In this document: piece by piece, positions 6,085 to 41,174 of the stretch
Position numbering within the stretch: the stretch's first letter is position 1
Layout of the letters: each line of letters begins with the position of its first letter
From: a phage
Length of the DNA: 64,000 bases
Sequence record: PZ445440.1
Strand: one strand, 5' to 3'
Program-made: the position numbers and the translations under genes
The notes under the pieces: model-generated
The model's database searches: none
What the model was told of the DNA's origin: nothing
Seen by the model: the letters and a program-made list of their open reading frames with translations, nothing else

Positions 6085-6140
6085 ATTATCCAACGAGAGA
6101 ATTATATTCATCTCTCAAGAGTTTGTATACTATTTTTTAA
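6085..6140 (-). promoter_or_regulatory. sigma70-type early promoter with stem-loop (TATACA -35, TATAAT -10 flanked by GAGAGA/TCTCTC)
   Basis: Read in sequence; near-identical copy at 35895..35945. Confidence 0.5.
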
Positions 6141-6369
6141 GCATGAAAAGTAAGTAATTTGTATCACGTGGAGTAATATCAACACCCATATCAAAGATGC
6201 CTTTATAGATTGGGTATTTGTTTTCGGTTGTATCGAAGCTGAAACTATTTCCATCACAACTAACAGTAATAGCATCTGTTAAAATGTCATACTCAATCCT
6301 AACAATTGAATCCCCAATTTTAACGTCGAGGTGTTTTTTGAATTTGATAAAATCTAATTCTTGGGCCAT
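6130..6369 (-). CDS. hypothetical protein (79 aa)
   Basis: ORF track; ATG with TGAGGAAAA upstream. Confidence 0.6.
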   Translation of the reverse strand: MAQELDFIKFKKHLDVKIGDSIVRIEYDILTDAITVSCDGNSFSFDTTENKYPIYKGIFDMGVDITPRDTNYLLFMLKK

Positions 6370-6432
6370 GATATTTTCCTCATTTTAAGACGATAGGAAG
6401 ATAATAACATGTCTTCCTATCGTTGTACATTA

Positions 6433-6633
6433 TTAACCGAACTTTTTAGCGCCTTTCCAGCCTTCGTACATAACTGCACAAGTCAATAGCACAGCATGTT
6501 GGCATTCTTTGTATTTGTAAATCCAGAACCAGCGTAAGAAGTCTTCATCCTCAACACCGTTGAGTTTCATATTGGCAAAGAATTCGGCACGTTCTTCACG
6601 AAGCTTTTGCGATAACATAGTTTCAGGATTCAT
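6433..6633 (-). CDS. hypothetical protein (66 aa)
   Basis: ORF track; ATG start. Confidence 0.55.
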   Translation of the reverse strand: MNPETMLSQKLREERAEFFANMKLNGVEDEDFLRWFWIYKYKECQHAVLLTCAVMYEGWKGAKKFG

Positions 6634-6765
6634 TTAAATTTCCCAATTGCCATTTTCATCAATAAATTTAATCCAGTCAGTTACTGACCACTTAGTTGTA
6701 TCGCCTTTTGGAGTAGCATTTAAAGTGTAGAACCCTTGCTTAAAAAGCCAGCGTTTGATATTCAT
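6634..6765 (-). CDS. small hypothetical protein (43 aa)
   Basis: ORF track 6634..6858 has implausible N-terminus; internal ATG 6765 has GAGGAAA upstream and a GTTTACA-17-TATAAT promoter at about 6790..6835. Confidence 0.4.
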   Translation of the reverse strand: MNIKRWLFKQGFYTLNATPKGDTTKWSVTDWIKFIDENGNWEI

Positions 6766-6845
6766 AATTTCCTCAACTGTAACGATAACATTCGTTAGCT
6801 TTACGTTTGGCTTCAGTATGAGAAGTATTATAATCATAATCTTCT

Positions 6846-7067
6846 TTACTGTAAACATCTTTTTTTCAACTTACGAACTTCTTTGCGGAGTTGTCGATTC
6901 ATTTCATTCTTGACTTCAGAATCAACGCCTTTCATACGTTTCCATTTATCTGAGCGGAAAATGTTTTCAACCATGTCTTTGTGGCTAACACCGTCAGGAG
7001 CTTTACGCTTACCAAAATAGTCGTAATCGCGAACTTTCAAATCTTTACGACGATATGTTTTACCCAT
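6846..7067 (-). CDS. small basic hypothetical protein
   Basis: ORF track 6846..7094; start moved to ATG with GAGG upstream. Confidence 0.5.
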   Translation of the reverse strand: MGKTYRRKDLKVRDYDYFGKRKAPDGVSHKDMVENIFRSDKWKRMKGVDSEVKNEMNRQLRKEVRKLKKRCLQ

Positions 7068-7074
7068 AAGTACC

Positions 7075-7323
7075 TCAGAGGTTGATTGATACAATGCGTT
7101 TGATAAAATTCACTTCACTTACTGAAAGGTCTTTAAGACCGATTGATTCTAAACGCTGAGTAAGCGTCAACATCGGGATATAATCCCAATGAGTTTTATT
7201 TGCTTGATAAGTACGAACGCCGTTAGCAATTTCAACATGCAAATCGGAAATGGTAATGAATATCGGACGTTCGTCATTAACTTTAAGGGTTAGAACAACT
7301 TTCTTTGAATCTAAACTAATCAT
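7075..7323 (-). CDS. hypothetical protein (82 aa)
   Basis: ORF track; ATG with GAAGGAAA upstream. Confidence 0.6.
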   Translation of the reverse strand: MISLDSKKVVLTLKVNDERPIFITISDLHVEIANGVRTYQANKTHWDYIPMLTLTQRLESIGLKDLSVSEVNFIKRIVSINL

Positions 7324-7502
7324 GGCTTAATTTCCTTCGCAATTGAACAGAAGATACCACGGTCACAAAGCATTTCACCAATTTCTGGATATTTGATTGA
7401 ACGGTACCAAACATCCAGGCTTGAAACTCTGGTTATCTGTACTGCGTTACCGTTGACAGAATAGTACTGGTCAACCTTAATTTCTTTATCTTCAATTGTC
7501 AT
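7320..7502 (-). CDS. hypothetical protein (60 aa)
   Basis: ORF track; ATG with AGAGGAAAA upstream; promoter-like GTTTAC element upstream (about 7520..7560). Confidence 0.55.
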   Translation of the reverse strand: MTIEDKEIKVDQYYSVNGNAVQITRVSSLDVWYRSIKYPEIGEMLCDRGIFCSIAKEIKP

Positions 7503-7635
7503 TTTATTTTCCTCTATAGTAGATGGTTTAATCTTAACACATCTATTGAGGATGTAAACTGTTTTATGAAAATATTTTCAATTTGAGAGGGGCACAAGGA
7601 GATAGTGAAGTGAAGATTCCAATGGATTATATTAG

Positions 7636-7670
7636 AAACGAGATAAAGAAGACCAGGCGGCACCTGGTCA
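7636..7670 (-). terminator. intrinsic terminator (GACCAGG-tgccg-CCTGGTC + T-rich tract)
   Basis: Hairpin overlapping stop codon of the glutaredoxin-like gene. Confidence 0.5.
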
Positions 7671-11357: not shown

Positions 11358-11392
11358 GATAAACCCTTACCTTAAATAGATAAGGGTATTTA

Positions 11393-11990: not shown

Positions 11991-12118
11991 AATAATCTCT
12001 TCCCATTTCCATATCAATTAATTCATTTATTGAAGGTTCATCATAACATGGTTCTTCGTCGTTGTAAACTGTTTCGACGTCTGGCTCGACTGTCTCCCAT
12101 CGAGCAGAATACCACGGT

Positions 12119-13456: not shown

Positions 13457-13761
13457 TATAATGTTCTCTCAAATTTGTGGAAGCATTTACGGCATTTCAA
13501 TTTCAAGTTATCAGTGGTCCAGTTAACCAGTTGGACTTGGATAGTTCCACATTCCGGACATGGATGTTTTGCTGCCGATTTGGCAGCATTTTCACGTCGT
13601 TCAACCATTTTCATGATTTCGTTCCATGCCGGAGGAACGAACTCTTCTTCACTATGAATTTTATCTCGTTGAACAAATTCAATCTTTGAACTATCGTCAA
13701 TAAACTTAACCAAGCGGTGATTAGTGTTCATATCAATATCTTCTAAAAGACGTAGTTTCAT
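13456..13761 (-). CDS. zinc-ribbon protein (CPEC...CRKC)
   Basis: ORF track; two CxxC pairs; TAATG overlaps on both sides. Confidence 0.65.
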   Translation of the reverse strand: MKLRLLEDIDMNTNHRLVKFIDDSSKIEFVQRDKIHSEEEFVPPAWNEIMKMVERRENAAKSAAKHPCPECGTIQVQLVNWTTDNLKLKCRKCFHKFERTL

Positions 13762-14711
13762 TATAACACCTCAATGGCATTTCGTAAACCATCCGCTTTA
13801 GCATTCAGAGCTTTTAACGATTTAGTTTGTTCTGCAATCTGGGCTTCGACTTCTTTCAGACGAGATTTGAGATATTCGCGTTCTTCTCTTAAGTTATCAA
13901 CTTTTTCTGCTTTAGGCTCTTTAATAGACTTAGGTTTATATGTATTAGGGTTCTTCAACTTAATTTGAATGCGAGAACTGAATAACATCGAACCGTTATC
14001 TTCGGTTTCACTGTGCATTTCTACCACATCCATGATTCTTAACATCATGCGAAGTTTATAAGACAGCGAACGAACGGTTTTATTGTGCTTCTTAATTTCT
14101 TCAGCTTTCATGGTGCCGAGATTACGTGAGTAGTAATAAGGAACCTGGATATCAATTGATAATGATGCGTTACCATTACCAGTTGGTTTGAATACTGCAG
14201 TAACCCAATCTTTAACATGAACTTTATTTGTACGATCATCGCCGCCTGTGAATAATTTACAAGAATGTTTAAAAAGCATATTCACTTGGTTATTGAATTC
14301 ACAAGCAAATTTATCAGCAAATTTAGTTTCAGGAATGGTAGTTAACCATTCAGCCAAATGAGTCTTTTTAACATCATTAACAATAGTGAATTCAACCAAA
14401 TCGGTTTTAGTTGTCACAGATTTAATAAAGCTCGGCTTCATAAAGTTTTTAATGTTATCGCGAGCTACAGTAGAAGATAATAAACGAGAACGTTTGAACC
14501 ATTGAAGCAACGTCCCTAACGAATGAGAATACGCATTTTGAGTATCTTTACAGATATGATTTTCTTGGCCTATGTATGTACCAAAATCGCGAAGAATACC
14601 ACTTACTACATCTCGGTGTGGAACATCAAATCCTAGTGCACCAGAAGCACGTTGGGCATGAACGTTAGCGATAAGACCTGCAAAGTATTCAATGTAATGT
14701 GAACGTGTCAT
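13761..14711 (-). CDS. hypothetical protein with C-terminal coiled coil (316 aa)
   Basis: ORF track; ATG with GAGAGGAAAA upstream; own promoter element upstream. Confidence 0.7.
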   Translation of the reverse strand: MTRSHYIEYFAGLIANVHAQRASGALGFDVPHRDVVSGILRDFGTYIGQENHICKDTQNAYSHSLGTLLQWFKRSRLLSSTVARDNIKNFMKPSFIKSVTTKTDLVEFTIVNDVKKTHLAEWLTTIPETKFADKFACEFNNQVNMLFKHSCKLFTGGDDRTNKVHVKDWVTAVFKPTGNGNASLSIDIQVPYYYSRNLGTMKAEEIKKHNKTVRSLSYKLRMMLRIMDVVEMHSETEDNGSMLFSSRIQIKLKNPNTYKPKSIKEPKAEKVDNLREEREYLKSRLKEVEAQIAEQTKSLKALNAKADGLRNAIEVL

Positions 14712-14730
14712 AATATTTTCCTCTCGTTAA

Positions 14731-14773
14731 GATAGATTCATTATACTCCAACCATCCTTGGTTGTAAACTATT
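14731..14773 (-). promoter_or_regulatory. early promoter (GTTTACA, 17-18 bp spacer with CCAACCA/TGGTTGG inverted repeat, TATAAT)
   Basis: Read in sequence; repeated at 15751..15790 and in variant form at 36398..36440. Confidence 0.5.
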
Positions 14774-15733
14774 TTATGATTTTAATGCATTCATTGCGTT
14801 AAAAAGTTTAGAATACTGCAACTGGAGATTCGTTACAACACTTTGAGCATCACGAAGCTTAGCTTGTGCTTTGTCAAGTTCAACAGACAGTTGGTCTACA
14901 GTAGCCTTGATTTGGTTGTAATGATAATCTTCGGCTGGAAGAAGGTCATTAGAAACATTTAGTTTTACTGCAGACAGTTTGCACACATTTGGTAAACCTT
15001 TAAACATTGATTTACCTGAAGTAGAATAAGCACTTAGGACTTCAGCCTGTTCAATTGGGGTCCCAGTAAGCGATGCTTCGAACGTTGCATTTTCCTTTTT
15101 AAGATTTTGATAGTATTCAGAGTCTTTGTGCCACCATGGCGCAGGAACCTTTTTACCAATAGATACACGAGCCTGGATAGCGATATGGCCCTTATTCTTG
15201 ATAGGGTCGATAATATTAAGCTCACGAGAATAAATTGCTTTAATCTCATGGATATTATCGCCTAACACTTCTAGCGCTTGGTGGAATACACGAGCAACGT
15301 TATCATTCTTAGGTTTATACGTAAGAGTGAACTCGTTCTCACTGATAACCATGATTTCTAACTTATCGTAAGTGTACTTAAGATGCTTCATGTTAACCGC
15401 TTGAGGACGAATACGAGAAGCAATGGCCATCAGATTGTTAAGGTTATTCCGGAACTGCTTAGCGAAATATTGTCCTTCACCACCAATACAAAAATTACGA
15501 AGTTTCTGTTTGGCTAATAAACGGCTGAACTCACCATTTTTAATGAACTCTTTAACGGGTGTGTTAGTAACGCATTCAAATTGAGTAAACTTACGAGAAT
15601 TAATCCCATAATACGAACAGATTTCCTCAATCTCTTCAGGAGTCTTTACAGGCATACGGATAGGATTAGGTCCTGGAGTATATGCGTTCGAGGTAAATTC
15701 TTTGATAAGTTCTTTACGTGTAATAAAAGCCAT
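14774..15733 (-). CDS. hypothetical protein with C-terminal coiled coil (319 aa)
   Basis: ORF track; ATG with TGAGGAA upstream. Confidence 0.7.
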   Translation of the reverse strand: MAFITRKELIKEFTSNAYTPGPNPIRMPVKTPEEIEEICSYYGINSRKFTQFECVTNTPVKEFIKNGEFSRLLAKQKLRNFCIGGEGQYFAKQFRNNLNNLMAIASRIRPQAVNMKHLKYTYDKLEIMVISENEFTLTYKPKNDNVARVFHQALEVLGDNIHEIKAIYSRELNIIDPIKNKGHIAIQARVSIGKKVPAPWWHKDSEYYQNLKKENATFEASLTGTPIEQAEVLSAYSTSGKSMFKGLPNVCKLSAVKLNVSNDLLPAEDYHYNQIKATVDQLSVELDKAQAKLRDAQSVVTNLQLQYSKLFNAMNALKS

Positions 15734-15750
15734 TTTATATTCCTCATGTT

Positions 15751-15790
15751 GAAAAATTTATTATACTCCAACCATCCTTGGTTGTACATC
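15751..15790 (-). promoter_or_regulatory. early-promoter-like repeat (copy of 14731..14773 element)
   Basis: Shared 26-nt core ttatactccaaccatccttggttgta. Confidence 0.45.
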
Positions 15791-16625
15791 ATTCCTTAAG
15801 AAGTTTTACTACCTGAATAAGATTAGCTCGTTCTGTTTTATTTTTACCGTTTAAGCCTGCTAATCGTGAGATTTCATCGTCAGTCTGTTGAATAGTTACA
15901 TTAAGTTCGTTAATCAAAGCTTCAAAGTATTTGATTTGCTCAGCATGTTTTGATTCAAATTTCTGAACCGGAATAACGTCTTGGTTTAGTTCATCAATAA
16001 GGTCTTTAAGAGCATCTTCTTGGTTGATATCATATTCAACTTCTTTTATTTCTTCAACGAGCTCGTCTTTATATCTAACGTCTTTTAGTCCTGGTGCTGG
16101 TCCTGAAATCTCTTCTTTAAGAGTACAAACATATCCAATACGGTATCCAATGCCGGCTCGCTTGATATCAACTTCGTCGATAAATCCACAATGTTTAAGC
16201 CCGGAGCCGATTAGGTCAAAATATCCTTGACGTCGTCCTTCAAACGTTACATGAACTACTAAGACAGTTTTACCTGCAACCTTTTGAAGCTCACATTTAT
16301 AAAAGTCAGTTGAACCTGAATAACGTGGATGAGTTTTAAAGTTCATCTGACGATCTAGGCCCATTTGTAAACGCGCTGTTACGGCCAGAAAACGTGTTTG
16401 GTTCTCGTTAAGATGAGCAACAATCCATTTCAAAGGCATTTTACATTGGTCACGACAGAACAAATCAACATATCCAAGATTACGAAGGATATTGTTAGAG
16501 TTAATCATCGACAGAACGTTAAGTTTATTCAGCGCGCTGAAGATTCCATCAGCCATTGATTTTCCGTAACCTTTACACGCTTTAATAAGTGCTCGCGGCA
16601 GATTAGTATAGATTTCAGACGGCAT
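15789..16625 (-). CDS. hypothetical protein with C-terminal coiled coil (278 aa; start uncertain, alternative ATG 16556)
   Basis: ORF track; N-terminal 97 nt overlaps ORF 16529..16786 in another frame. Confidence 0.65.
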   Translation of the reverse strand: MPSEIYTNLPRALIKACKGYGKSMADGIFSALNKLNVLSMINSNNILRNLGYVDLFCRDQCKMPLKWIVAHLNENQTRFLAVTARLQMGLDRQMNFKTHPRYSGSTDFYKCELQKVAGKTVLVVHVTFEGRRQGYFDLIGSGLKHCGFIDEVDIKRAGIGYRIGYVCTLKEEISGPAPGLKDVRYKDELVEEIKEVEYDINQEDALKDLIDELNQDVIPVQKFESKHAEQIKYFEALINELNVTIQQTDDEISRLAGLNGKNKTERANLIQVVKLLKE

Positions 16626-16786
16626 ATGAAAATCAAATTTACTCTAACCAGTAATTGATGAACTTGGATAGCAATTTGTTCATAATTAAGTGCTCTGCGA
16701 TCATTATGGTCTTTAAACCACACTTTAATCTGTGAAGCACATAAACCGTTAATTTCATGTTTTACCGCATCAGATGTAATGCTCAT
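16529..16786 (-). CDS. hypothetical protein (85 aa)
   Basis: ORF track; ATG with strong GAGGAAA upstream; overlaps next gene. Confidence 0.45.
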   Translation of the reverse strand: MSITSDAVKHEINGLCASQIKVWFKDHNDRRALNYEQIAIQVHQLLVRVNLIFICRLKSILICREHLLKRVKVTENQWLMESSAR

Positions 16787-16848
16787 AACTATTTCCTCAG
16801 ATTGAATTGGAACTCAAAACCATTATAACCCGTCCTTGGGTAAAGCGT

Positions 16849-17376
16849 TTATGCGTGAACCGTCTTTAAACGTTCTTCAAATTTCCGAAGAGTACTAATA
16901 CGTTCTGCTTTCTGTTTTGTATAGTTTGCAATACGTTCTGAAGTGAGAGCGTATCGTTCGTTTACTGTTTCTTTCATGAAGTCAGTGATTTCACGAGAAG
17001 CTTTAATTTCATCAAACTTATCGAGTACTGCCTGATCTTCAGCAATTAAATTTTCGTACATCTCGATATCTTTCTTGATGAAGTCGATATCTTCCTGGGT
17101 TACTTTGGATAAACGAGATGCTTTATCCTTTTTGTATTGCTCGTTAGTTTCACGAGACCAGAATAATGTACGGTTTTTGTTGGTGTTTTTGTAGACTTCC
17201 ACAATTCCAACTGAATCGATGATAACAATCCAATTCCAGCGAGATTTGAAAATCTGACCTCCGTCCACGGTAATCTCGTTACCATAAGCAACATCATTAA
17301 AGAACTTGCTTTGTGCTTCAGATTTAAATTTACCGTCGTTATAATTTACCAGGTTGAAAATATCTTTAGCGTTCAT
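16849..17376 (-). CDS. hypothetical protein with C-terminal helical tail (175 aa)
   Basis: ORF track; ATG with GGAGGTAAAAC upstream. Confidence 0.7.
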   Translation of the reverse strand: MNAKDIFNLVNYNDGKFKSEAQSKFFNDVAYGNEITVDGGQIFKSRWNWIVIIDSVGIVEVYKNTNKNRTLFWSRETNEQYKKDKASRLSKVTQEDIDFIKKDIEMYENLIAEDQAVLDKFDEIKASREITDFMKETVNERYALTSERIANYTKQKAERISTLRKFEERLKTVHA

Positions 17377-17391
17377 GTTTTACCTCCAGTA

Positions 17392-29606: not shown

Positions 29607-30065
29607 TTATAGGAGGGTAGTGAGCACCTTATATAATGATTTACCCATTACATATTCCCATTGAGAAGGTTTAATTAAAGCGAATGCATCAAATTCAGGA
29701 ATCTGTCGTCCGTCCGGGAATGTATGATAGGAATTACAAACACTGTTTCTGAATTGCTCGTGCTCTACAGGAATGGTATATTGGAACAGATGAATATTCT
29801 TATTGTCTGAGTAATGATGTTCGCCTAGGTCTTTCAGGAAGGCAGGGTCATATTGTGTAAACCCAGTTTCTTCTTCGCATTCACGAATAGCGGCTTCAAT
29901 AGGAGATTCGCCGGGTTCGACACGACCTTTAGGAATATCCCACCGATGAGCTAATGCACCTTTAGGACGAGAACCAGTTACACGCCCCATGAATAATTCT
30001 TTATCTTCGGTAAGGAAAATAATACCGGCTGATAGTTCTTTCACTTTATTTTTCTTACTCATCAT
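29607..30065 (-). CDS. nudE: NUDIX hydrolase NudE (e.1)
   Basis: 152 aa; Nudix box GRVEPGESPIEAAIRECEEETG. Confidence 0.85.
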   Translation of the reverse strand: MMSKKNKVKELSAGIIFLTEDKELFMGRVTGSRPKGALAHRWDIPKGRVEPGESPIEAAIRECEEETGFTQYDPAFLKDLGEHHYSDNKNIHLFQYTIPVEHEQFRNSVCNSYHTFPDGRQIPEFDAFALIKPSQWEYVMGKSLYKVLTTLL

Positions 30066-30291
30066 CTCGGTCCCATGATTTGGCCATTAATTCGGACATA
30101 AATTCTTCAATGCGCGTTTCTTTAGATGGACTTTCACTATTAGAGACCGCAAGTTTGTAATCTGCAATAGGACAAAACATATCAAGGTCCATATTAAGAT
30201 CGTCTTTGATTTTTTCTTCTGACACATCTTTATCGTATGTGTACAGATAACTATCACATGATTCTGATTTAATGTAAATTGCTATACTCAT
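30055..30291 (-). CDS. small acidic hypothetical protein
   Basis: ORF track 30055..30306; second ATG has AGGAA upstream. Confidence 0.5.
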   Translation of the reverse strand: MSIAIYIKSESCDSYLYTYDKDVSEEKIKDDLNMDLDMFCPIADYKLAVSNSESPSKETRIEEFMSELMAKSWDRDDE

Positions 30292-30779
30292 CTCAAATTC
30301 CTGCATTCGGTAATAAAACGTTCAACTTCATTATTCTTGGCCTTTATCTTGTCTTTACGTTCCTGTAAACTACTTTTAACAAGATTAATAATGATGCCTA
30401 CAGTACCTCCACCAATGATGCCACCAACAACACTTATGATACTAGATGCTAATAAGATAGCAATAATATCAACAAAACCGAAAGAACTCACCTTAGTACT
30501 AAAAAACCACACTGACGGTACAAATATAATCCATCCTGTTATCCATTGGCACTTATTGAAAAACTTTTCAAGCTCAGCTTGAGTTGTTCGTATTACTTCA
30601 TCGATAGGTTGATATCCATTAATGTATCTGTTCACGATAATACCTGCTGGCTGGTTGATTTTAAATTCTTGGCAAATATGTTTCACTAAGTAGGACGGAC
30701 ATCCTGTCCAATCTACTGAATAATACGAAATACCTTCGTTGCCATCGTCTATATTAGACCAATATGTTTTGTTAATCAT
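30288..30779 (-). CDS. membrane protein (C-terminal TM helices; tail ...FITECR)
   Basis: ORF track; hydrophobic C-terminal half. Confidence 0.65.
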   Translation of the reverse strand: MINKTYWSNIDDGNEGISYYSVDWTGCPSYLVKHICQEFKINQPAGIIVNRYINGYQPIDEVIRTTQAELEKFFNKCQWITGWIIFVPSVWFFSTKVSSFGFVDIIAILLASSIISVVGGIIGGGTVGIIINLVKSSLQERKDKIKAKNNEVERFITECRNLR

Positions 30780-31465
30780 TACCAGCCTTCCATAGGGAAT
30801 TCCAGATAAACTTGGGCATTGACACGAATTTCATTGGTAATCTTTTTAACTCGGTCTGTATTACGAGATACACGTCCGAACCAACGCCATCCGTTACTAA
30901 TTGCACGAGAACCAGTGTGCCATGTTTGCCAATCAAACTGAAGAAGAGTACGGTCTGGAGCTTCCCATTTCTCTAGTTCACCTTTTTCGATTTTTTCGAG
31001 GACTTCTTTGTGCCACTGGCGATAGATAAGTTCGCCATCAGGAATCTGACTGAACTCTGCAGTTCCTGTTGCAAAATGAGTAGGACACACATCAGAGTTA
31101 ACAAGACCAAGAATATGTTCAGAATGGTAACGAGGGTTGTCATAGTCAGGTTGTCCTGCAGTAATAAAGTGTTGACCAACTGGAATATCCGGGCGTGGTA
31201 CATCGTCATGGTGATAACCTGGGATAGCAGGGTACCAACCAGGCATCAGCATGTGGACTCGTGAATCAAATACAACCTGGTCGGTGTTCCAATCATCCGG
31301 CAAGTTCATGATGAAGCTGCGAGTAATAGGACCGCCGTTATTATAAGCAAATTCTAAACTACAGTTAAAGAACATCGGTTCGTTCTTGATTTTATCATTA
31401 GAAATGCTACCGGCAAAACCACCTACTGCACGAGCTTGGCTATTAAACACTTTAGAACTATTCAT
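30779..31465 (-). CDS. hypothetical protein (228 aa, His-rich)
   Basis: ORF track; ATG with GAGGAAAA upstream embedded in the preceding gene's last codons. Confidence 0.7.
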   Translation of the reverse strand: MNSSKVFNSQARAVGGFAGSISNDKIKNEPMFFNCSLEFAYNNGGPITRSFIMNLPDDWNTDQVVFDSRVHMLMPGWYPAIPGYHHDDVPRPDIPVGQHFITAGQPDYDNPRYHSEHILGLVNSDVCPTHFATGTAEFSQIPDGELIYRQWHKEVLEKIEKGELEKWEAPDRTLLQFDWQTWHTGSRAISNGWRWFGRVSRNTDRVKKITNEIRVNAQVYLEFPMEGW

Positions 31466-31466
31466 A

Positions 31467-31772
31467 TTATTTTCCTCGACATTCTTTAATGAAATTTTCT
31501 AGATTGGTAGATTCAATAGCTTTTTTACGAGCTTCTGCGTGTTCTTCTTCGGACAATTTACGTTTATAATTGACCCAGACATTATGGTCTAAACCGGTCG
31601 TGGCATATAATATCAAAGCTCCGACGAATAATAAAAACGGTGATAAAAATATACAACCAGGAACACCATCCATACTGTAAGCCTTTTGTAATACTGCAAC
31701 AGAAAGAGCTGCGTAAAAAAGCGATGCAAATATTGTAAAAAGACCGATTCGGTTGGTTTCGCCTAATTTCAT
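31467..31772 (-). CDS. membrane protein (2 TM; tail ...NFIKECRGK)
   Basis: ORF track; ATG with GAGGAGAA upstream. Confidence 0.65.
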   Translation of the reverse strand: MKLGETNRIGLFTIFASLFYAALSVAVLQKAYSMDGVPGCIFLSPFLLFVGALILYATTGLDHNVWVNYKRKLSEEEHAEARKKAIESTNLENFIKECRGK

Positions 31773-31789
31773 AATATTCTCCTCATGTT

Positions 31790-31832
31790 TTAATAGGACT
31801 ACTATAACATAGCCCTATAATTGTGTAAACAG
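31790..31832 (-). promoter_or_regulatory. early promoter with stem-loop (GTTTACA ... TTATAG in TAGGACTA/TAGCCCTA repeat)
   Basis: Read in sequence. Confidence 0.5.
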
Positions 31833-31842
31833 TTTTGTGAAG

Positions 31843-32799
31843 TTATTTGAAAGGTTTTACCATATGGAAATTTTGTTTGAAACGTTTGACGTAATCGTCG
31901 TGTCCTAAGCTTTGGTACATACTTACTACTTTGCTGTAGTTTTCCCAGGCATACTCACGGAACCAACCAGAGGTGATGCTTGTACAGACCTTTTCCAATG
32001 CCATCATGAAACTGGCTTCAGGGTTAATTTTAAAGTCATTAGGAATTTGAGAACGTTCTAATGCTAGTACACATGATTCTTCGTATACACCGGCCAGTTT
32101 AATCATTTCTGGTAACGATTCGAACTTCTCGCGTGAGGTCATGACTTCAGAACCGTCTTTCATGTAAAACGTATAAGCCGGACGGTCTGTTAGTGCAATG
32201 GCTTCATGAATAGTATCATGGTCATATGTATAGATGTCATCTTTAAAGAACGCACTTTTAGAAGTGTCAAGAACCGGGTGAGCATAGTTCAAAGTTTCTT
32301 TCTGGCGTTTCAGCATAATTTCAGTAAGTTCATCGTTCAGTGTAACACCTTTACCACGAAGATACTGAATATGGTTCATAGTCTTTAAAAAGAATGGATT
32401 ATTTTTCTTGAAACGGTGAGACATCTTAATTGCAAGACATATCTCAGGAGTTGCCCAGTAAAACCCGGTCAAACGGTCTTTAGTCAAATTTTTCTTGGCG
32501 TATTTTAAAAGGTCATAAGAAGACGTGAAATCTTCAGGAGTGAGTTCACCGACTAGTTCACGGACATTAGTGATTGCCGGAACAATATACGCTTCAAAAT
32601 GAGTTTCGCGTCCATTATGGAAGCATTTGAAAACTTGGACATCAGGGTTATCTTGGTGGACATATACACCCATCATTTGATTTTTGAATGCATTCCAAGA
32701 ACATTGGTCCGCAATAAAGTCCCAATCACTATTTTTGATAGCGCTAGAATCAATAAGACCGTGATAGTGAAGTGCACGAGAACCAATAACTAACAACAT
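31843..32799 (-). CDS. hypothetical protein with nucleotidyltransferase-like N-terminal motif (318 aa)
   Basis: IGSRALHYHGLIDSSAIKNSDWDF resembles the GS...D.D signature; ATG with GAGGAAAA upstream. Confidence 0.7.
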   Translation of the reverse strand: MLLVIGSRALHYHGLIDSSAIKNSDWDFIADQCSWNAFKNQMMGVYVHQDNPDVQVFKCFHNGRETHFEAYIVPAITNVRELVGELTPEDFTSSYDLLKYAKKNLTKDRLTGFYWATPEICLAIKMSHRFKKNNPFFLKTMNHIQYLRGKGVTLNDELTEIMLKRQKETLNYAHPVLDTSKSAFFKDDIYTYDHDTIHEAIALTDRPAYTFYMKDGSEVMTSREKFESLPEMIKLAGVYEESCVLALERSQIPNDFKINPEASFMMALEKVCTSITSGWFREYAWENYSKVVSMYQSLGHDDYVKRFKQNFHMVKPFK

Positions 32800-32827
32800 A
32801 ATATTTTCCTCGGATTAATTCATTAAC

Positions 32828-33067
32828 TTAAATTTCACGACATGCGATATCATATTCATCCCAGAGGTCATCATGTGAAGCCTCTACCAATGGAACGATT
32901 GTACCATTTATGTCTTCATTATAAGGGCAAATTGTACAGTGCGCATCTTCGAATCGGATGCCTTTGTGTTCAGATTTTTTATAACGCATATCGAATATCT
33001 TTGCAAACTTTTCACGAGTAATGGTTTTACCAACCACTTTGGTTCCGATACTTTCGTAATAAATCAT
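32828..33067 (-). CDS. hypothetical protein (79 aa, Cys/His-containing)
   Basis: ORF track 32828..33079; second ATG in ATGGAGAACAAAATG leader. Confidence 0.6.
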   Translation of the reverse strand: MIYYESIGTKVVGKTITREKFAKIFDMRYKKSEHKGIRFEDAHCTICPYNEDINGTIVPLVEASHDDLWDEYDIACREI

Positions 33068-33129
33068 TTTGTTCTCCATTTGTTTTGATAGGACTACTAT
33101 AACATAGCCCTATCTTGTTGTAAACTGTT

Positions 33130-33327
33130 TTAGCAAGAATAACTAGATGATACCCAGCCTTGAACAGTGATACTATTGTGGGATAATGAGATCGCGTCCT
33201 GGAGATTCAGACCTGCGTTATCTTCAATCCATAATGTAACTTCTTCGCGTTCTTCTGTTGCAATTTGGAACAGGTTTTCTAGAGCAGCTACTGCGGTACG
33301 TACAGCACAATCTAATTCACGAGACAT
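33130..33327 (-). CDS. small acidic protein, paralog family member (C-terminus GWVSSSYSC)
   Basis: ORF track; AAGGAAA upstream. Confidence 0.6.
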   Translation of the reverse strand: MSRELDCAVRTAVAALENLFQIATEEREEVTLWIEDNAGLNLQDAISLSHNSITVQGWVSSSYSC

Positions 33328-33336
33328 ATGGTTTCC

Positions 33337-33609
33337 TTAGCAAGTGTGAGAAGATGCAACCCAACCGCCATCTTCAAGGCTCAGGTTGTAGTCGTATTGG
33401 TAAACGTCAGCCCATTCAGCATAGCCGTTTTTTGTACAACGTTCAAGATCGGCTTTAAGATGTCCGGGTGAATGATAGGTTCCACCCATACCATAAGCTG
33501 GATACAAGTCGAATGTTGTGTTTTGTTTATCAGCAATTTCTTTGGCAGCCTCAATAGCTGCATAGATTTTTGCTACAGCTTCGGCCAGTTCGGTTTGTTC
33601 TTTAGACAT
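33337..33609 (-). CDS. small acidic protein, paralog family member (C-terminus GGWVASSHTC)
   Basis: ORF track; AAGGAA upstream. Confidence 0.6.
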   Translation of the reverse strand: MSKEQTELAEAVAKIYAAIEAAKEIADKQNTTFDLYPAYGMGGTYHSPGHLKADLERCTKNGYAEWADVYQYDYNLSLEDGGWVASSHTC

Positions 33610-33618
33610 AATGATTCC

Positions 33619-33924
33619 TTAGCACAACGCAGAAGACGAAACCCAAGCACCTTCAGTAATAACGTAACCATTACCTTCACGCTTAACATCACCACCATTA
33701 TTTTCAATTTCATCTTTCATCCACTGGGATACGATTTCACCCTTAGGATAATAAGTACGTCCGCTACCATAATCACCTACAGAAAATGATACGGCATATT
33801 GGTCTGCGATCTTTGTTGCTTCTTCTTCGATACGTTCAGCTTGATTCAGAAGTTTATAAATTGCATCTGAAGCGGATTTGGCATCATTAAACTCTGGTAC
33901 TTTAATTTCAATAATCTTACTCAT
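33619..33924 (-). CDS. small acidic protein, paralog family member (C-terminus GAWVSSSALC)
   Basis: ORF track; ATGA overlap with upstream gene. Confidence 0.6.
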   Translation of the reverse strand: MSKIIEIKVPEFNDAKSASDAIYKLLNQAERIEEEATKIADQYAVSFSVGDYGSGRTYYPKGEIVSQWMKDEIENNGGDVKREGNGYVITEGAWVSSSALC

Positions 33925-34280
33925 TTTCTACATTCCTTAATAAAGTTTTCGATTGTTTCATTTTCACGTTTAGCTAGAAGTTCATTATAACTAATCATTT
34001 GAGAAGCGTAAACCTTTTTATTTTTCTTGTTATGGTTTATAAAATCGTAGTAAAAATAGACTACAGTACAAAATGATGCGATGGATGCAAAGGCTTGGGT
34101 ATACCGTAAGTCCTGCCATTGGTCTGTGAATCCACCGGTATTCCCTATAAATCCTAACACAACTCCGTCAATAAGAAATCCAACTAATCCAAAGGCAAAT
34201 CCCATGCCAATACTCATAATAAAAATTAAAATATTCTCACCAAGAGAAGGCCATACGGTTAAGAGTTGAGGCTTTTGCAT
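33921..34280 (-). CDS. membrane protein (tail ...ENFIKECRK)
   Basis: ORF track; hydrophobic helices. Confidence 0.65.
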   Translation of the reverse strand: MQKPQLLTVWPSLGENILIFIMSIGMGFAFGLVGFLIDGVVLGFIGNTGGFTDQWQDLRYTQAFASIASFCTVVYFYYDFINHNKKNKKVYASQMISYNELLAKRENETIENFIKECRK

Positions 34281-35868: not shown

Positions 35869-35894
35869 ATTATTACCTTTCAATTGGTGGTTTA

Positions 35895-35945
35895 TTATCC
35901 AATGAGAGCATTATACTCTGCTCTCAAGAGTTTGTAAATTATTTT
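35895..35945 (-). promoter_or_regulatory. sigma70-type early promoter with stem-loop (TTTACA-17-TATAAT flanked by GAGAGC/GCTCTC)
   Basis: Near copy of element at 6085..6140. Confidence 0.5.
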
Positions 35946-36166
35946 TTAATCAAATTGACATAAAACTTGGCGTCTTCCGGGTGCATGCCTTCACAGTATT
36001 CTTCAACCATGAACTTCTTAACAGCTTCATAAGGACCACTCAGATTAAGCTCAGTTGTCCAGAACTTGGAATCTTGGACTGAATCGATACGAACTTCAGG
36101 GTGACGGTTGCGAATAACTTCTTCGGTATATTCATAATCAACGACATCAATACTAACTTTAGCCAT
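35939..36166 (-). CDS. hypothetical protein (75 aa)
   Basis: ORF track; ATG with AGAGGAAAA upstream. Confidence 0.6.
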   Translation of the reverse strand: MAKVSIDVVDYEYTEEVIRNRHPEVRIDSVQDSKFWTTELNLSGPYEAVKKFMVEEYCEGMHPEDAKFYVNLIKK

Positions 36167-36212
36167 TTTGTTTTCCTCTTGATTTGATGTGATTACTATA
36201 ACATAAACTTAC

Positions 36213-36377
36213 TTAGATGTAAATTATTTCAACGTCACCTTTAGCGGCTTTATAACCTTCAGCCCAAGATACAACAGAGTTTTTATCTGAGGATTCAAAT
36301 TCAGGCATTGGACTTTCACCAATATTCACACAGTATGTTTCTTCATTTTCATCGAACCAAATAATTAAAGTAGTCAT
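36213..36377 (-). CDS. small hypothetical protein (54 aa)
   Basis: Below track threshold; ATG with GAGGAG upstream and promoter element at 36398..36440. Confidence 0.45.
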   Translation of the reverse strand: MTTLIIWFDENEETYCVNIGESPMPEFESSDKNSVVSWAEGYKAAKGDVEIIYI

Positions 36378-36445
36378 TTTGTTTACTCCTCTGTAGTTAA
36401 TAAGTCTATAGTATCACCATCCTTGGTGCTTGTACATCATTATTT

Positions 36446-36751: not shown

Positions 36752-36808
36752 AATATTCTTCTCATTAATAGGGCTCGTAATATCTCAATCATAAGCCCAT
36801 GTACGCGT

Positions 36809-37072: not shown

Positions 37073-37211
37073 TTCATTCTCCAAGTTTTTTCTGTATCGG
37101 TAGTTGATAGTTGTATAGTACCACGGAAGAACAGGGATGTAAACAGTTTTGTGAAAAAAAAATTTTAAAAAAGTTTTGTGGAATTCTAGGGCAGGGAGAG
37201 GAAAGGCCTAG

Positions 37212-37814: not shown

Positions 37815-37936
37815 TTAAAATCCTTGAAATAATTTATCGGTTGGTTATTAATTATTTATCACATTGTTATATGTAACAGCATTCTCTGAGCGATTCAAAC
37901 TAAAAAGCCCCAACAGAAAGGTTTGGGCTAAGAATG

Positions 37937-38401: not shown

Positions 38402-38447
38402 GTTGCTTTTCCTAAGTTAATTAACTTATCTATTTATTATGCCAAAA

Positions 38448-38471
38448 AGCCCCAACCGTAAGGAAGGGGCT
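38448..38471 (-). terminator. terminator-like hairpin (AGCCCC-n12-GGGGCT + T-run)
   Basis: Read in sequence. Confidence 0.45.
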
Positions 38472-38782
38472 AAGCCTTGCGGCAACCTTGTCGGGGTTCC
38501 ACCTGCTAAGGCAAGTGTTTGTACGAAACGCCGGGATTTGAACCCGGTTATCAAGCAGTTGACGCTACTCAATATTTTTAAAAGGCCATATCTCGACCAT
38601 ATCCGAACGTTCCGTCAAAAACGCTACTCGGCTTACGGCAAAGATATTTCCTCGAATCGATAATTCTGTGCGCCGTTTCTGCTGTGATGTAAGGGGATAT
38701 TAACAAATCATAAAGATTTATTAAGACCAGTCCTTACTCAGGGAACATCAGTCCGACGACTTGCCGGTAGCGACCCGGCTTC

Positions 38783-39228: not shown

Positions 39229-39302
39229 TGACCCAGACCAGATTCGAACTGGTAACCTTTCCCTTATGAGGGGACTGCTGCTAACCATTGAGCTACAGGG
39301 CC
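39229..39302 (-). tRNA. tRNA with anticodon CAU (Met or lysidine-type Ile), no encoded CCA
   Basis: Manual fold: GGCCCTGTAGCTCAATGG 5-prime, anticodon loop CTCATAA, T arm ACCAG-TTCGAAT-CTGGT; one acceptor mismatch; coordinates +/-2. Confidence 0.6.
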
Positions 39303-39381
39303 TAAATAACTTTCTATTATGAAAGGCACTTTAGAGCACCTTTGGTAATAGAGGGTATGAATTAATAATAACACATAATTC

Positions 39382-39897
39382 TTAAAGCAAATCAATCATT
39401 TTAACAGTTGGCAAAACGATTTCTTCTTCAATATAAGCAAATTCAACACATTCAACTACACGCAAGAAATCATAATCATAATATTCAGAAGCATGGCCAA
39501 GAATACCAACGAGACCTTCTGATACTAAATATCCATTCTCACGGAACAGGTCGAATACACGCGATTCGTCTTCTTCAGATTTATTACCAAGGTCGACTTC
39601 AATATCAAAGACCTTTTTAATGAATTCTGGATAAAGCTGGTCTGAGAACAGTCCTTCAACCAAGTATTCATAAATTAAAAGCGAGCAATCACTGAATGGT
39701 GTATTACCACAGTAACGTTCAGCTTTAGTGCTAGAATGACTGCTCTTAAATTTCTTCAAGAGATATTTAAACTGTTGGAGCTCATGCTCTTCCACTTCAA
39801 ACAATGTTTTGGTTTTATAGTTGTCACCATCATTTTCATAGGTAGTGACATCAATTACGTAGCCCTTAGGAATTGTACTGCCTAAACAAATATTCAT
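39382..39897 (-). CDS. hypothetical protein (171 aa)
   Basis: ORF track. Confidence 0.65.
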   Translation of the reverse strand: MNICLGSTIPKGYVIDVTTYENDGDNYKTKTLFEVEEHELQQFKYLLKKFKSSHSSTKAERYCGNTPFSDCSLLIYEYLVEGLFSDQLYPEFIKKVFDIEVDLGNKSEEDESRVFDLFRENGYLVSEGLVGILGHASEYYDYDFLRVVECVEFAYIEEEIVLPTVKMIDLL

Positions 39898-39901
39898 TTA
39901 C

Positions 39902-40192
39902 TCACCGTACCATATTAATGTAATTATATTCAATGCAACGTAATTTCAAAGGATTCTTGAAAATATCATATTCAAGAGGGCCTTTTTCTGTTTCAATAAA
40001 GAAATCAAAGTTAACTGTGTTAAATTTATCGTCTTCACAGAGTAATTTAACTTGCGAAGATGAACGGTCGATGTAAACCTTTTCAACTTCAAAATTAGTT
40101 AGAATACCGTAGTCATTAACTAGTGCTTTAGCTGCACGTTGATCGCTTTCATATCCATTCTCGACAGATTTTACTTTAGCATAAAGAATCAT
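39902..40192 (-). CDS. hypothetical protein (96 aa)
   Basis: ORF track. Confidence 0.6.
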   Translation of the reverse strand: MILYAKVKSVENGYESDQRAAKALVNDYGILTNFEVEKVYIDRSSSQVKLLCEDDKFNTVNFDFFIETEKGPLEYDIFKNPLKLRCIEYNYINMVR

Positions 40193-40551
40193 GAGTGTTC
40201 CACCACTTCAAAGGTATGAGCATCAACAATATGATACCAGTCAAAATTTTCTTCCGCGTTTTTATAAATTTCGCGAAGAGCTTCAACAGTTTTTCCTGTA
40301 GCAACAAGATCATCAATACCACCAAGAGGATAACAGTCATAACCAGCAAACAGAAGGAAATTAATAGTTTCTGTAGGGGCCGGATGCAGTGTACCATTGT
40401 CATCGACTACTTCAAAGAACATATAACCAGGCGATTTAGATTTAATCCAAGCCCATGCTTGAGCTGCTGAATCAAATGGTCTGCGTATCAAACGACAATC
40501 AGGGTCTTTAGAAGGATTTGCTTCAAAATCCGCGTATACGTGATATTTCAT
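40189..40551 (-). CDS. hypothetical protein (120 aa)
   Basis: ORF track 40189..40569; ATG 40551 with AAAGGTGAG upstream. Confidence 0.6.
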   Translation of the reverse strand: MKYHVYADFEANPSKDPDCRLIRRPFDSAAQAWAWIKSKSPGYMFFEVVDDNGTLHPAPTETINFLLFAGYDCYPLGGIDDLVATGKTVEALREIYKNAEENFDWYHIVDAHTFEVVEHS

Positions 40552-40552
40552 T

Positions 40553-40738
40553 TTACTCACCTTTTGCAATTTTATCCATAACGATAGCGATTAAGCCGAT
40601 TAGAAATGCTACTACCAATGAGATAGAGTTTTCAGTTGTTGTCAGTAGTCCGCAAATGAATCCTACAAACATCGAAAAACTAAAAGCCATTGAAGCAATT
40701 ACTACAGCAACATTACGAATCAGTTCAGCGCGTTTCAT
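40553..40738 (-). CDS. small membrane protein (61 aa)
   Basis: ORF track 40553..40759; second ATG in ATGGAGAAATAAAATG leader. Confidence 0.55.
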   Translation of the reverse strand: MKRAELIRNVAVVIASMAFSFSMFVGFICGLLTTTENSISLVVAFLIGLIAIVMDKIAKGE

Positions 40739-40766
40739 TTTATTTCTCCATTTACTCATTTTGTTC

Positions 40767-40810
40767 TGATAGGACTACTATAACATAGTCCTATCAGCAT
40801 GTAAACTACT
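40767..40810 (-). promoter_or_regulatory. early promoter with stem-loop (GTTTAC ... TTATAG in GATAGGACTA/TAGTCCTATC repeat)
   Basis: Read in sequence. Confidence 0.5.
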
Positions 40811-41097
40811 TACAGAAGAGTTTTTGCAATAATTTTAAGCTGAGCTACAGAAATATGCTTAGCTTTAAACAGTGCAGTCTCTTCAGCGGGAGAGATAACA
40901 ATAGTAGCGCCATCTTTCTTAGCGGACCACCCGTCTCCTAAGTAAACAGTACCTTTTACTTCTTCGCCGTCAACCAGACTAATCATTGGTTTACCCTCAC
41001 GTCCTTTATTTGCTTTAATAACTTCGGAAGTAAGGGTTGCTTCGGTCAGAGTAGAAACGTTAGCAACAGGTGATATAAATTCTTTATAGGTTTTCAT
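40810..41097 (-). CDS. ipI: internal head protein IPI-like (CTS MKTYKEFISP)
   Basis: 95 aa; CTS N-terminus; position next to 57B as in T4. Confidence 0.7.
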   Translation of the reverse strand: MKTYKEFISPVANVSTLTEATLTSEVIKANKGREGKPMISLVDGEEVKGTVYLGDGWSAKKDGATIVISPAEETALFKAKHISVAQLKIIAKTLL

Positions 41098-41174
41098 TTT
41101 ATTTCCTTGAGGTTGTTTATTTGATAGGATGATAGTATCACACCATCATCCTTATGTAAACTGTTTTGTGAAAA

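Follow-up and report, generated by a model that had tools for sequence, protein, structure and literature searches.

The question raised by the 64,000-nucleotide (nt) stretch of phage DNA analysed here (record PZ445440.1; hereafter the window) is why many early promoters on its minus strand carry the -10 hexamer inside an inverted repeat whose arms differ from copy to copy, and whether such repeats act as DNA, as transcription terminators or as folded RNA. A preliminary description, made from the letters alone, had listed 21 sites of this kind and had likened them to the promoter early stem-loop (PeSL) cassettes of T4-type phages. We find about 25 compact promoter cassettes between early genes, about two-thirds of them with the -10 hexamer in an RNA hairpin. 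The family mixes two structures, a short hairpin past the upstream stop codon (class I) and a long-range pairing between the promoter spacer and the Shine-Dalgarno (SD) sequence (class II).

Positions 20000-26000 of the window are 100% identical to Escherichia phage ChristianSchoenbein (Bas46, MZ501056.1; Straboviridae, Mosigvirus) and ~96% identical to RB69. In the record annotation the minus strand holds all genes of positions 1-45000, which correspond to the early or 'hyperplastic' block (rpbA, 46/47, 55, nrdD/G, tk, regB, denV, e, tRNAs and ipI, then 1, 3 and 2). The motif GTTTAC-N16-19-TAnnnT has 20 matches against 4.25 +/- 2.2 expected from dinucleotide shuffles (0 of 100 shuffles had at least 20), and 17 of the 20 lie on the minus strand, bearing out the family as first described. 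Inspection of all intergenic sequences added elements with a degenerate -35 hexamer (GTATAC, ATGTAC, ATTTAC, GCGTAC) and several middle-type promoters with a MotA box (GCTTTA-N12-TAnnnT). The cassettes were also recovered independently by a repeat search, as direct-repeat families of 43-89 nt (D1-D3, D5, D6, D8, D10), and several of them are recent paralogues (76-90% identity over 48-63 nt). Long intergenic regions carry an upstream A/T element, TTTTCACAAAAC(A/T) (at 7559, 31830, 37144 and 41161; repeat family D7), while in short ones the tail of the preceding gene occupies the part upstream of the promoter. The promoters themselves are already known as a family, since RB69 orthologues of essentially all window elements were predicted as early promoters by Nolan et al. 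2006 (PMC1524935, Additional file 3; Pe:42515 to Pe:77187), and position offsets relative to that list agree where compared (regB, denV and others). The two sets share the GTTTAC -35 hexamer, the 17-18 nt spacer, the TAnnnT -10 hexamer and C-rich positions -3 to -1, but the RB69 work treats promoters only and mentions neither dyad symmetry nor RNA structure.

Two hairpin structures around the -10 hexamer

Each promoter was searched for ungapped helices joining a 5' arm in the spacer to a 3' arm past the -10 hexamer, and the best one was compared with those from shuffled spacer and downstream segments. Such bracketing helices exceed chance at 11 of the 28 motif-defined window sites (p<=0.04). 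In the window catalogue they occur at 15 of 22 intergenic early promoters and at 2 middle promoters; three early promoters and one middle promoter have a hairpin confined to the spacer, and four early promoters have none. Seven elements that were folded gave -16 to -23 kcal/mol with z scores of -2.7 to -5.2. The three arm pairs originally quoted are exact (GATAGGACTA/TAGTCCTATC at 40766-40797, AGGTCTAT/ATAGACCT at 17398-17425 and GAGAGA/TCTCTC at 6095-6116), but the claim that the -10 hexamer sits within a repeat at all 21 sites stands at 13 only (396, 6085, 7520, 17392, 21262, 21700, 24940, 28760, 31790, 33085, 35895, 40767 and 41122), the first of which is a MotA-box middle-type promoter rather than a GTTTAC early one. 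Among the remaining eight, 14731, 15751 and 36398 have only a small hairpin wholly within the spacer (CCAAGGATGG), built on CCAAGGAYGG; 18870, 36180, 37100 and 6790 have no significant helix, the last lying within coding sequence; and 17725 is a half-element or remnant. The list had also overlooked six elements, at 6390-6430 (with a 12 bp stem), 5190-5232, 16822-16846, 28033-28062, 36771-36806 and 39359-39381.

The comparison was extended to 240 unique predicted early promoters from Bas46, RB69, T4 and IMG/VR relatives taken around regB and gene 55. Helix scores of at least 7 bracket the -10 hexamer in 42% of these promoters and 5% of shuffles, and scores of at least 10 in 12.5% and 0.1%, the shuffle-based significance being inflated by the mutual relatedness of the promoters. 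Class I comprises 64 of the 240 and class II 37. In class I the 5' arm lies at about -14 to -4 relative to the start of the -10 hexamer and the 3' arm at +1 to +10 past it; one register, with its dyad axis between -12 and -11, accounts for 31 of the 64 helices, and the 3' arms end a median of 10.5 nt past the -10 hexamer, covering about -7 to +3. The class II arms lie at -17 to -7 and at +12 to +23, where the 3' arm overlaps the SD, and enclose loops of 17-30 nt. Eleven window elements belong to class I, while class II is represented by regB (14 bp), denV (10 bp), 7510-7559 and 21700-21751, with gene 55 included through an outer helix that pairs its SD. The window promoters with a bracketing stem are listed here, with folding free energy (dG, kcal/mol), z score and helix-test p where given.

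404-436, minus: MotA-box (GCTTTA) middle-type promoter, orthologue of T4 P45.2; hairpin GATGTGGT/ACCACATC with loop TATAAT; dG -16.2, z -5.15. In T4 P45.2, TAGAG/CTCTA flank TATAAT.
5190-5232, minus: middle-type promoter before gene 55, orthologue of T4 P55; stem ATAGGTCT/AGACCTAT around the -10 hexamer, with an outer helix pairing the SD.
6095-6130, minus: early promoter (GTATAC -35), class I; hairpin GAGAGA/TCTCTC; the cassette is 87% identical to its paralogue at 35891-35952 (family D10).
6390-6430, minus: early promoter (ATGTAC -35), class I; 12 bp ACGATAGGAAGA/TCTTCCTATCGT; dG -18.6, z -2.8, p=0.003.
7510-7559, minus: early promoter, class II; two-part stem TCCTC..ATAGATG / CATCTA..GAGGA over the SD; dG -12.0, z -2.1. 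Orthologues carry TCTCCTCACGTGTT/AACACATGAGGAGA.
17398-17432, minus: early promoter, class I; hairpin AGGTCTAT/ATAGACCT; p=0.037. The T4 orthologue, nrdC.8, has an SD-occluding stem instead.
21244-21302, minus: early promoter, class I; 12 bp TTGGTAGGACTA/TAGTCCTACCAA; dG -23, z -4.3, p=0.003; RegB/S1 site GGAGAACAAAA.
21700-21751, minus: early promoter, the weakest of class II; TTCTCCTC/GAGGAGAA pairs the spacer with the SD; z -0.97, p=0.063.
24939-24989, minus: regB early promoter, class II; 14-bp stem TTCTCCTCTAGTTG/CAACTAGAGGAGAA sequestering the SD.
28751-28804, minus: denV early promoter, class II; 10-bp stem TTCCTCCAAG/CTTGGAGGAA over the SD; p=0.01.
31793-31830, minus: early promoter, class I; hairpin ATAGGGCTA/TAGTCCTAT with one G.U pair.
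33067-33125, minus: early promoter, class I; hairpin GATAGGGCTA/TAGTCCTATC with one G.U pair; p=0.003; RegB/S1 site GGAGAACAAAA.
35903-35939, minus: early promoter (ATTTAC), class I; hairpin TGAGAGCA/TGCTCTCA; z -3.2, p=0.027; family D10.
36771-36806, minus: weak early promoter (GCGTAC), e.7 orthologue; weak bracketing stem GGGCT/AGCCC, whose T4 e.7 counterpart is ATAGGCTnAT/ATGAGCCTAT.
40766-40806, minus: early promoter, class I; 12 bp CTGATAGGACTA/TAGTCCTATCAG; dG -22.2, z -4.3, p=0.003.
41126-41161, minus: ipI early promoter, class I; hairpin AGGATGAT/ATCATCCT; z -3.7, p=0.017. The T4 ipI arms are TGATGAGGTA/TACCTCATCA.

Compensatory change and folding of read-through RNA

Arms that vary between copies yet stay complementary had been noted within the window, and the same is seen between orthologues across genera: the promoters of regB, denV, 55.6, nrdC.8, 55.2/e.6, nrdC.10, trna.4 and ipI, as well as P45.2 and P55, carry different but complementary arms in different phages. 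At regB, where the downstream arm indeed holds the SD (3' arm CAACTAGAGGAGAA at 24939-24952), the inner stem reads TAGTTG/CAACTA, TGACTG/CAGTTA, TTTATG/CATAAA or TGTAAG/CTTACA within a constant anti-SD/SD core, with compensatory changes in five lineages including T4. These comparisons were made on per-sequence helices; when regB leaders were aligned with MAFFT and folded with RNAalifold, loop indels put the inner stem out of register and nothing beyond the 7-bp anti-SD/SD core was recovered. The denV arms are TTCCTCCAAG/CTTGGAGGAA in Bas46 and TCTCCTGTAG/CTACAGGAGA in T4, with a 14-bp form in the relative L029; orthologues of the 55.2/e.6 element (6095-6130) carry GAGAGA/TCTCTC, GAGCA/TGCTC, GAGGAC/GTCCTC or GGGACCA/TGGTCCC; and one P55 base pair is G-C, G.U, A-U or A.C in different phages. 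Across 150 promoters with an 18-nt spacer, unselected for structure, covariation in the dominant register is 0.252, compared with 0.189 in shuffles (reached by 0 of 500), a control that is generous for related sequences, and with 0.087-0.147 for slid partners, a control that retains the relatedness. Double-change cells number 262 against 189. The pairing is a real, evolutionarily maintained feature. An Rfam scan found only two tRNAs, and the hairpins are not a curated RNA family.

The pattern of mismatches bears on the molecule in which the pairing occurs. Internal helix positions hold 28 G.T and 11 A.C pairs, whereas helices in shuffled sequences hold 42 and 63; since a DNA duplex or cruciform would treat both mismatches alike, the G.T excess argues for sense-strand RNA. 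A DNA-level role, and cruciforms in particular, would likewise be hard to square with class II, where loops span 17-30 nt and the 3' arm is tied to the SD. A sequence-specific protein operator was considered and is ruled out, as the arm sequences vary freely.

Together these observations point to pairing in RNA, and in read-through transcripts alone. RNA started at the local promoter, at a predicted ~7 nt past the -10 hexamer, lacks the 5' arm and cannot fold, so that only RNA reading through from upstream forms the hairpin. Genes packed closely in one orientation lead one to expect such RNA, and T4 delayed-early RNA arises by extension of early transcripts (PMC2988021). The mapped T4 starts of P45.2 and P55 lie 2 nt beyond the 3' arm and inside its last 2 nt, respectively (coordinates from PMC2988021, Table 1, compared with the T4 sequence). 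At regB the read-through RNA folds at -23.2 kcal/mol and the local leader at -0.1; at denV the values are -19.1 and -0.3, and both local leaders fold more weakly than almost all shuffles. Over all promoters the median z of local leaders is about +0.5 to +0.6, while that of read-through RNA is -2.8 for class I and -3.8 for class II.

For class II this geometry carries a predicted consequence for translation. Pairing of the SD in the long transcript is predicted at regB, denV, 7559, 21751 and, by the outer helix, gene 55, and the internal promoter by its geometry starts downstream of the 5' strand. Judged by its folding energy, about -20 kcal/mol, a stem that sequesters the SD should prevent initiation of translation on read-through RNA. 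The same stem should also shield GGAG from RegB, an enzyme that requires 11 single-stranded nt and that secondary structure inhibits (PMC1702504). We did not find SD-occluding stems at regB or denV described, in a search that did not reach the 35-phage regB survey or the T4 genome review; a literature search for SD sequestration at T4 early promoters gave only the known late-promoter cases, and one for genome-wide maps of T4 or RB69 transcription start sites or 3' ends found none.

The cassette leaders, predicted to be unstructured, also contain a recognisable RegB target. The published RegB/S1 cleavage consensus GGAGRAYARAA (11 nt; Durand et al. 2006, PMC1702504) has three exact matches in the window against 0.34 expected, all in cassette leaders, where they overlap the SD as in T4 early mRNAs; other cassettes deviate from it at one or two positions, the Bas46 sites being sequence predictions.

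21244-21254, minus: RegB/S1 match GGAGAACAAAA, exact consensus.
33067-33077, minus: RegB/S1 match GGAGAACAAAA, exact consensus.
18841-18851, minus: RegB/S1 match GGAGAATAAAA, exact consensus.

The shared leader reported earlier, ATGGAGAA(C/A)AAAATG, occurs exactly at 21242-21256 and 33065-33079 and with one or two mismatches at 382-396 and 18839-18853 (both cassette leaders) and 23743-23757, a total of five against 0.68 expected. Its enrichment therefore stood, but the suggestion that the upstream ATG is a meaningful part of the SD did not: by its match to the consensus the leader appears better explained as the RegB/S1 site, and the ATG of ATGGAG overlaps the SD only incidentally. At 33079 the annotated start is the ATG of ATGGAG, which places the SD and RegB site inside the open reading frame; translation probably begins at the ATG 12 nt further on. 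Positions 382-396 hold a comparable tandem ATGGAG...ATGGAG.

Class I hairpins, terminators and rival explanations

The -35 hexamer of a class I promoter follows the upstream stop codon at a median distance of 2 nt. The simplest reading is that the hairpin is the 3' hairpin of the upstream cistron, accommodated within the spacer and discriminator, the only two segments free of sequence constraint in an intergenic region of 50-60 nt. It resembles Rho-independent terminators in lying directly past a stop codon and in being interchangeable in position with real terminators in relatives, but the stems are not GC-rich and lack a U-tract, on which grounds a canonical intrinsic terminator was rejected; as none of the hairpins has a U-tract, termination, the other half of the PeSL concept, would be conjectural here. 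A canonical terminator lies at most 110 nt upstream of 0 of 64 class I promoters, 28 of 139 hairpin-less ones (p=1.3e-5) and 8 of 37 in class II; counted by orthologue group, the figures are 0 of 29 for class I and 15 of 61 for hairpin-less promoters (p=0.002). Before gene 55.2, T4-like phages have a terminator hairpin, GGGCTTCGGCCC-TTTTTGGATAATAAAAT, where Bas46 has a promoter hairpin followed by GTTGGATAATAAAAT, and the two versions share the downstream flank TTGGATAATAAAAT. Separate canonical terminators in the region lie at 18929-18955, 21758-21791, 37897-37930 and 38439-38472. The last three are copies of one repeat, 65-88% identical and reading AAAAAGCCCC...GGGGCT on the plus strand, and each sits upstream of a promoter or leader. 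Two further hairpins past stop codons have weak T-runs and no promoter (11358-11392, ACCCTTA...TAAGGGT; 26906-26935, ATAGGCCTA...TAGGCCTAT).

We consider it probable that these elements are compact regulatory cassettes that mark read-through RNA by a hairpin, with class II gating the SD and class I ending the upstream cistron. Each cassette would consist of a host-sigma70 early promoter (in a few cases a MotA-dependent middle promoter) giving an unstructured, A-rich SD leader and a start codon; with the 5' arm in the -35/-10 spacer and the 3' arm past the -10 hexamer, the hairpin would distinguish transcripts that come from upstream. The SD itself forms the 3' arm in class II, to which regB, denV and the genes at 7502 and 21695 belong, as does gene 55 by virtue of its outer helix; read-through RNA would there escape both translation and RegB, so that each gene would be expressed only while its own promoter fires. 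The class I hairpin, starting ~10-15 nt past the upstream stop codon and ending near +3, would serve as the 3' hairpin of the upstream cistron; with no more than 50-60 nt between genes, it would stand in for a separate terminator. Attenuation is one role it may have; we lean towards another, that of halting 3' exonucleases once RegB or RNase E has cut the adjoining single-stranded leader, because of the A-rich tail and the RegB sites. This reading builds on the motif and its strand bias, the helix enrichment and geometry, the compensatory variation, the exclusivity with terminators and one crossover described below, from which effects on translation, RNA ends and stability would follow.

Several observations weigh against it. 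Start sites were placed from their spacing to the -10 hexamer and are mapped, in T4, for P45.2 and P55 only, and the promoters compared are related to one another. Eight window promoters presumably work without a bracketing helix, so the hairpin is not needed for promoter function, and the orthologues of 21700-21751 are all near-identical and lend that element no covariation support. The mismatch bias is modest, with G.U to A.C at ~19:9 once orthologues are collapsed manually, and A.C mismatches do occur (e.g. in RB69 and L037). The class I tails have no U-tract (means of 3.8 A and 1.75 T over 8 nt, and at least four T in only 3 of 64), and a terminator scan of window positions 14001-34000 flagged no promoter hairpin while flagging separate GC-rich terminators nearby. 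The exclusivity of class I and terminators could in part be a consequence of intergenic length.

A broader version, which we regard as doubtful, is that the hairpins are a general T-even device, present at ~40% of predicted early promoters across genera, by which an mRNA 'records' whether it was started locally or by read-through. One subclass would then confine the translation and RegB sensitivity of regB, denV, gene 55 and others to transcripts begun locally, and the other, a terminator substitute without a U-tract, would work with cutting of the neighbouring single-stranded leader by RegB or RNase E to set the 3' ends and stability of upstream cistrons; we hold this extension of the device no less tentatively. 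Among the promoters counted as carrying hairpins are classical T4 ones such as those of regB, denV, ipI, ipII, ipIII, mobD.2 and trna.4.

That class I hairpins are instead genuine terminators or attenuators, as proposed for PeSLs, insulating each gene without any role in RNA stability, appears to us rather unlikely. An RB49/phi1 PeSL stem-loop placed before lacZ cut expression as much as the rrnB T1 terminator (PMC2839356), but that assay cannot separate termination from RNA decay or effects on translation, and the class I stems are richer in A/T than the GGGG...CCCC stems of RB49 that were assayed. The exclusivity with canonical terminators and the terminator's position taken by a class I hairpin before gene 55.2 fit this explanation well; the A-rich tails and the outcome of the terminator scan do not. 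A role in DNA, by which cruciforms or single-stranded hairpins modulate the promoter or are cut by gp49 or gp46/47 to give recombination hot spots, is improbable. Perfect 10-14 bp repeats with 6-8 nt loops could in principle extrude, cassettes lie at some indel junctions, the ORF102c crossover described below falls within the segment of the -10 hexamer and 3' arm, and the PeSL authors speculated on a DNA-binding protein and observed mini-circles (PMC2839356). The free variation of the arms, however, excludes a sequence-specific protein site, the 28:11 preference for G.T over A.C and the long class II loops with an SD-fixed arm fit RNA only, and most breakpoints relative to other phages are not at cassettes.

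Hardly to be credited is the absence of any function, with the repeats arising as by-products of cassette duplication and quasi-palindrome correction or from a pyrimidine-rich spacer that happens to match the purine-rich SD. Templated correction of quasi-palindromes is a known mutational process in T4, several window copies are recent paralogues, some promoters lack a helix and some stems are mismatched. Against this, helices are kept across genera with entirely different arms, including the inner stem beyond the SD; one register dominates class I; covariation exceeds that of the slid controls; the exclusivity with terminators is strict; and structure falls below that of shuffles in local leaders but far exceeds it in read-through RNA.

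If the cassettes do mark read-through RNA, the translation, RegB cutting and stability of an early gene would depend on the origin of its transcript, adding a layer to the T4-type temporal programme, and the promoter's own spacer would hold the information on origin without taking up extra genome. This would explain early intergenic regions of 50-60 nt without separate terminators, and the conservation of the cassettes as 50-90 nt repeats usable for swaps of accessory genes. In practice, the analysis flags start codons that are likely mis-called and offers testable designs for engineering BASEL and T-even phages.

Other elements, recombination and related systems

The remaining promoters and promoter-like elements of the window have a spacer-only hairpin, no intact or significant hairpin, or a less certain standing.

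14740-14769, minus: early promoter, spacer-only hairpin AACCA-AGGA-TGGTT; no bracketing helix.
15760-15789, minus: early promoter (ATGTAC) with the same spacer as 14740-14769; family D8, 86%. The two spacer-identical copies flank the gene at 14774-15733.
16822-16846, minus: MotA-box promoter, orthologue of T4 PnrdC.7; spacer hairpin ACCC-AAGGAC-GGGT.
17723-17762, minus: remnant half-cassette (AAAATAATGATGTACAA...), not a credible promoter; its '-10' overlaps the start codon.
18841-18909, minus: early promoter (GTGTAC) with no intact hairpin; RegB/S1 site GGAGAATAAAA; a chimera of two RB69 cassettes.
28033-28062, minus: early promoter with consensus hexamers, no hairpin; p=0.86.
36195-36224, minus: early promoter (ATTTAC), no hairpin; p=0.99.
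36408-36437, minus: early promoter (ATGTAC), spacer-only hairpin CACC-AAGGAT-GGTG.
37115-37144, minus: early promoter with the full upstream A/T-rich element and a separate canonical terminator upstream; no significant hairpin.
39359-39381, minus: candidate promoter before two tRNA genes; stem GAATTA/TAATTC around TGTTATTAT, from sequence inspection only.
6827-6856, minus: GTTTAC-N18-TATAAT inside coding sequence, conserved in T4-like phages; no consistent hairpin.

The spacer mini-hairpins share a conserved loop, AAGGA(U/C), at 14752-14761, 15772-15781, 16830-16839 and 36417-36426 (minus strand), four occurrences against 0.11 expected. Their stems covary (AACC/GGTT, CACC/GGTG and ACCC/GGGT; CCAC/GTGG in T4, at the nrdC.3, nrdC.4 and nrdC.7 promoters), and the GGA in the conserved loop may be a sign that a factor binds there, S1 or RegB for example. 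The intergenic region holding the remnant (17723-17860, 138 nt) is wholly replaced in RB69, and its 17-mer AAAATAATGATGTACAA recurs identically in the intergenic region 36378-36445; the same region can form a long imperfect hairpin, GAGGTAAC..AAGCCATA / TATGGCTT..ACCTC. Further intragenic promoter matches lie at 12040-12069, 13760-13789 and 33984-34013. The last adjoins exactly a 250-bp indel relative to phiE142 (34014-34263) and may be a cassette left within a gene that was fused or extended. Unannotated homologues of T4 stable RNAs lie on the minus strand of the 381-nt 'empty' intergenic region, rnaD at 38668-38782 (86% identity) and rnaC at 38522-38660 (97%), and Rfam has no family for them.

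As dispersed repeats of 50-90 nt the cassettes would be substrates for recombination, and the modular shuffling proposed for PeSLs finds one clean instance here. RB69 ORF102c is flanked by two cassettes, where Bas46 has a single chimera (18842-18956); the exchange point lies within ATGTTATTATAGACCTATC, the -10 hexamer plus 3' arm, and phiE142 has the RB69 arrangement. A cassette-flanked gene at 6130-6369 is also absent from a T4-like relative. Most of the nine synteny breaks relative to RB69 in 45 kb, however, are not at cassettes; among these are a homing-endonuclease insertion and swaps of internal-protein genes, so that the recombination role is real but explains only part of the plasticity. 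A putative homing-endonuclease gene absent from RB69 lies between genes 2 and 4, at 44159-44809. The indel in the ipI region was examined as a promoter-cassette crossover and rejected, the shared segment (41075-41129) being the SD and N-terminal leader of internal-protein genes; it is an older, Repoila-type exchange of internal-protein cassettes, and the 27666-27973 event is likewise an exchange through such a leader. Copies of the SD and N-terminal leader of internal-protein-like genes form a direct-repeat family (27625-27696, 27965-28036 and 28289-28360), and phiE142 lacks the gene between the first two (27666-27973), a cassette deletion through the repeats.

The SD-occluding subclass appears by analogy to work like the T4 e, soc, 49 and I-TevI system (PMC3014915) without being of the same class. 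In both, the SD lies in a helix whose 5' strand is upstream of an internal promoter, so that long transcripts are silent and internal-promoter transcripts are translated, as documented in T4 and predicted here. The T4 genes use late (TATAAATA) promoters and silence early read-through, whereas the internal promoter of the window elements is early (GTTTAC) or MotA-type rather than late, and the 5' strand is its own -35/-10 spacer. The promoterless hairpin at 11358-11392 is conserved upstream of gene 49 in T4, where the SD-sequestering structure is documented.

The window elements are of the published PeSL kind, which was defined as a T4-type early promoter, a stem-loop and an SD/ATG between small genes of the hyperplastic region (Arbiol et al. 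2010, PMC2839356), and they extend it to an RB69-type phage. With the PeSLs as presented in the sections considered here of that paper and of Comeau et al. 2014 (PMC4122927), they share a sigma70-type early promoter (here, by sequence match, -35 and -10 hexamers at ~17-nt spacing) with a stem-loop at the promoter, and an SD and start codon at the 3' end, in intergenic sites among small genes or genes of unknown function; the A/T-rich upstream sequence of PeSLs has its counterpart in the long intergenic regions. They are likewise dispersed repeats found at indel and replacement junctions between close relatives. The match proposed in the preliminary description therefore holds for promoter, stem-loop, SD/ATG and intergenic site, except that 8 of its 21 sites lack the repeat and two distinct structures were mixed. 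Of the two layouts commonest in phi1 and RB49, one has the stem-loop 'overlapping the -10 box' (PMC2839356); stem-loops over the -10 hexamer or in the spacer occur in both settings, and G-T pairs are present there too. The few MotA-type middle promoters with the same hairpins resemble the 'PmSL' of nt-1, as far as described in the sections considered. The differences lie in the variable arms, which are not of the GGGG...CCCC type and have no U-tract, and in the pairing with the SD, undiscussed in those sections of the PeSL papers. There, PeSLs are described for RB49/phi1, T4/PST and KVP40/nt-1, and RB69 is mentioned neither in the searched text of the 2010 paper nor in the portion of the 2014 paper considered. 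The T4/PST stem-loops are placed, in the same portions, just upstream of the promoter, whereas here, and by our analysis also at classical T4 promoters, they bracket the -10 hexamer. Nothing in the window is categorically new, and the result refines a published concept rather than opening another, adding to the PeSL cassettes a division into two classes, compensatory change across genera, a G.U bias and the exclusivity with terminators.

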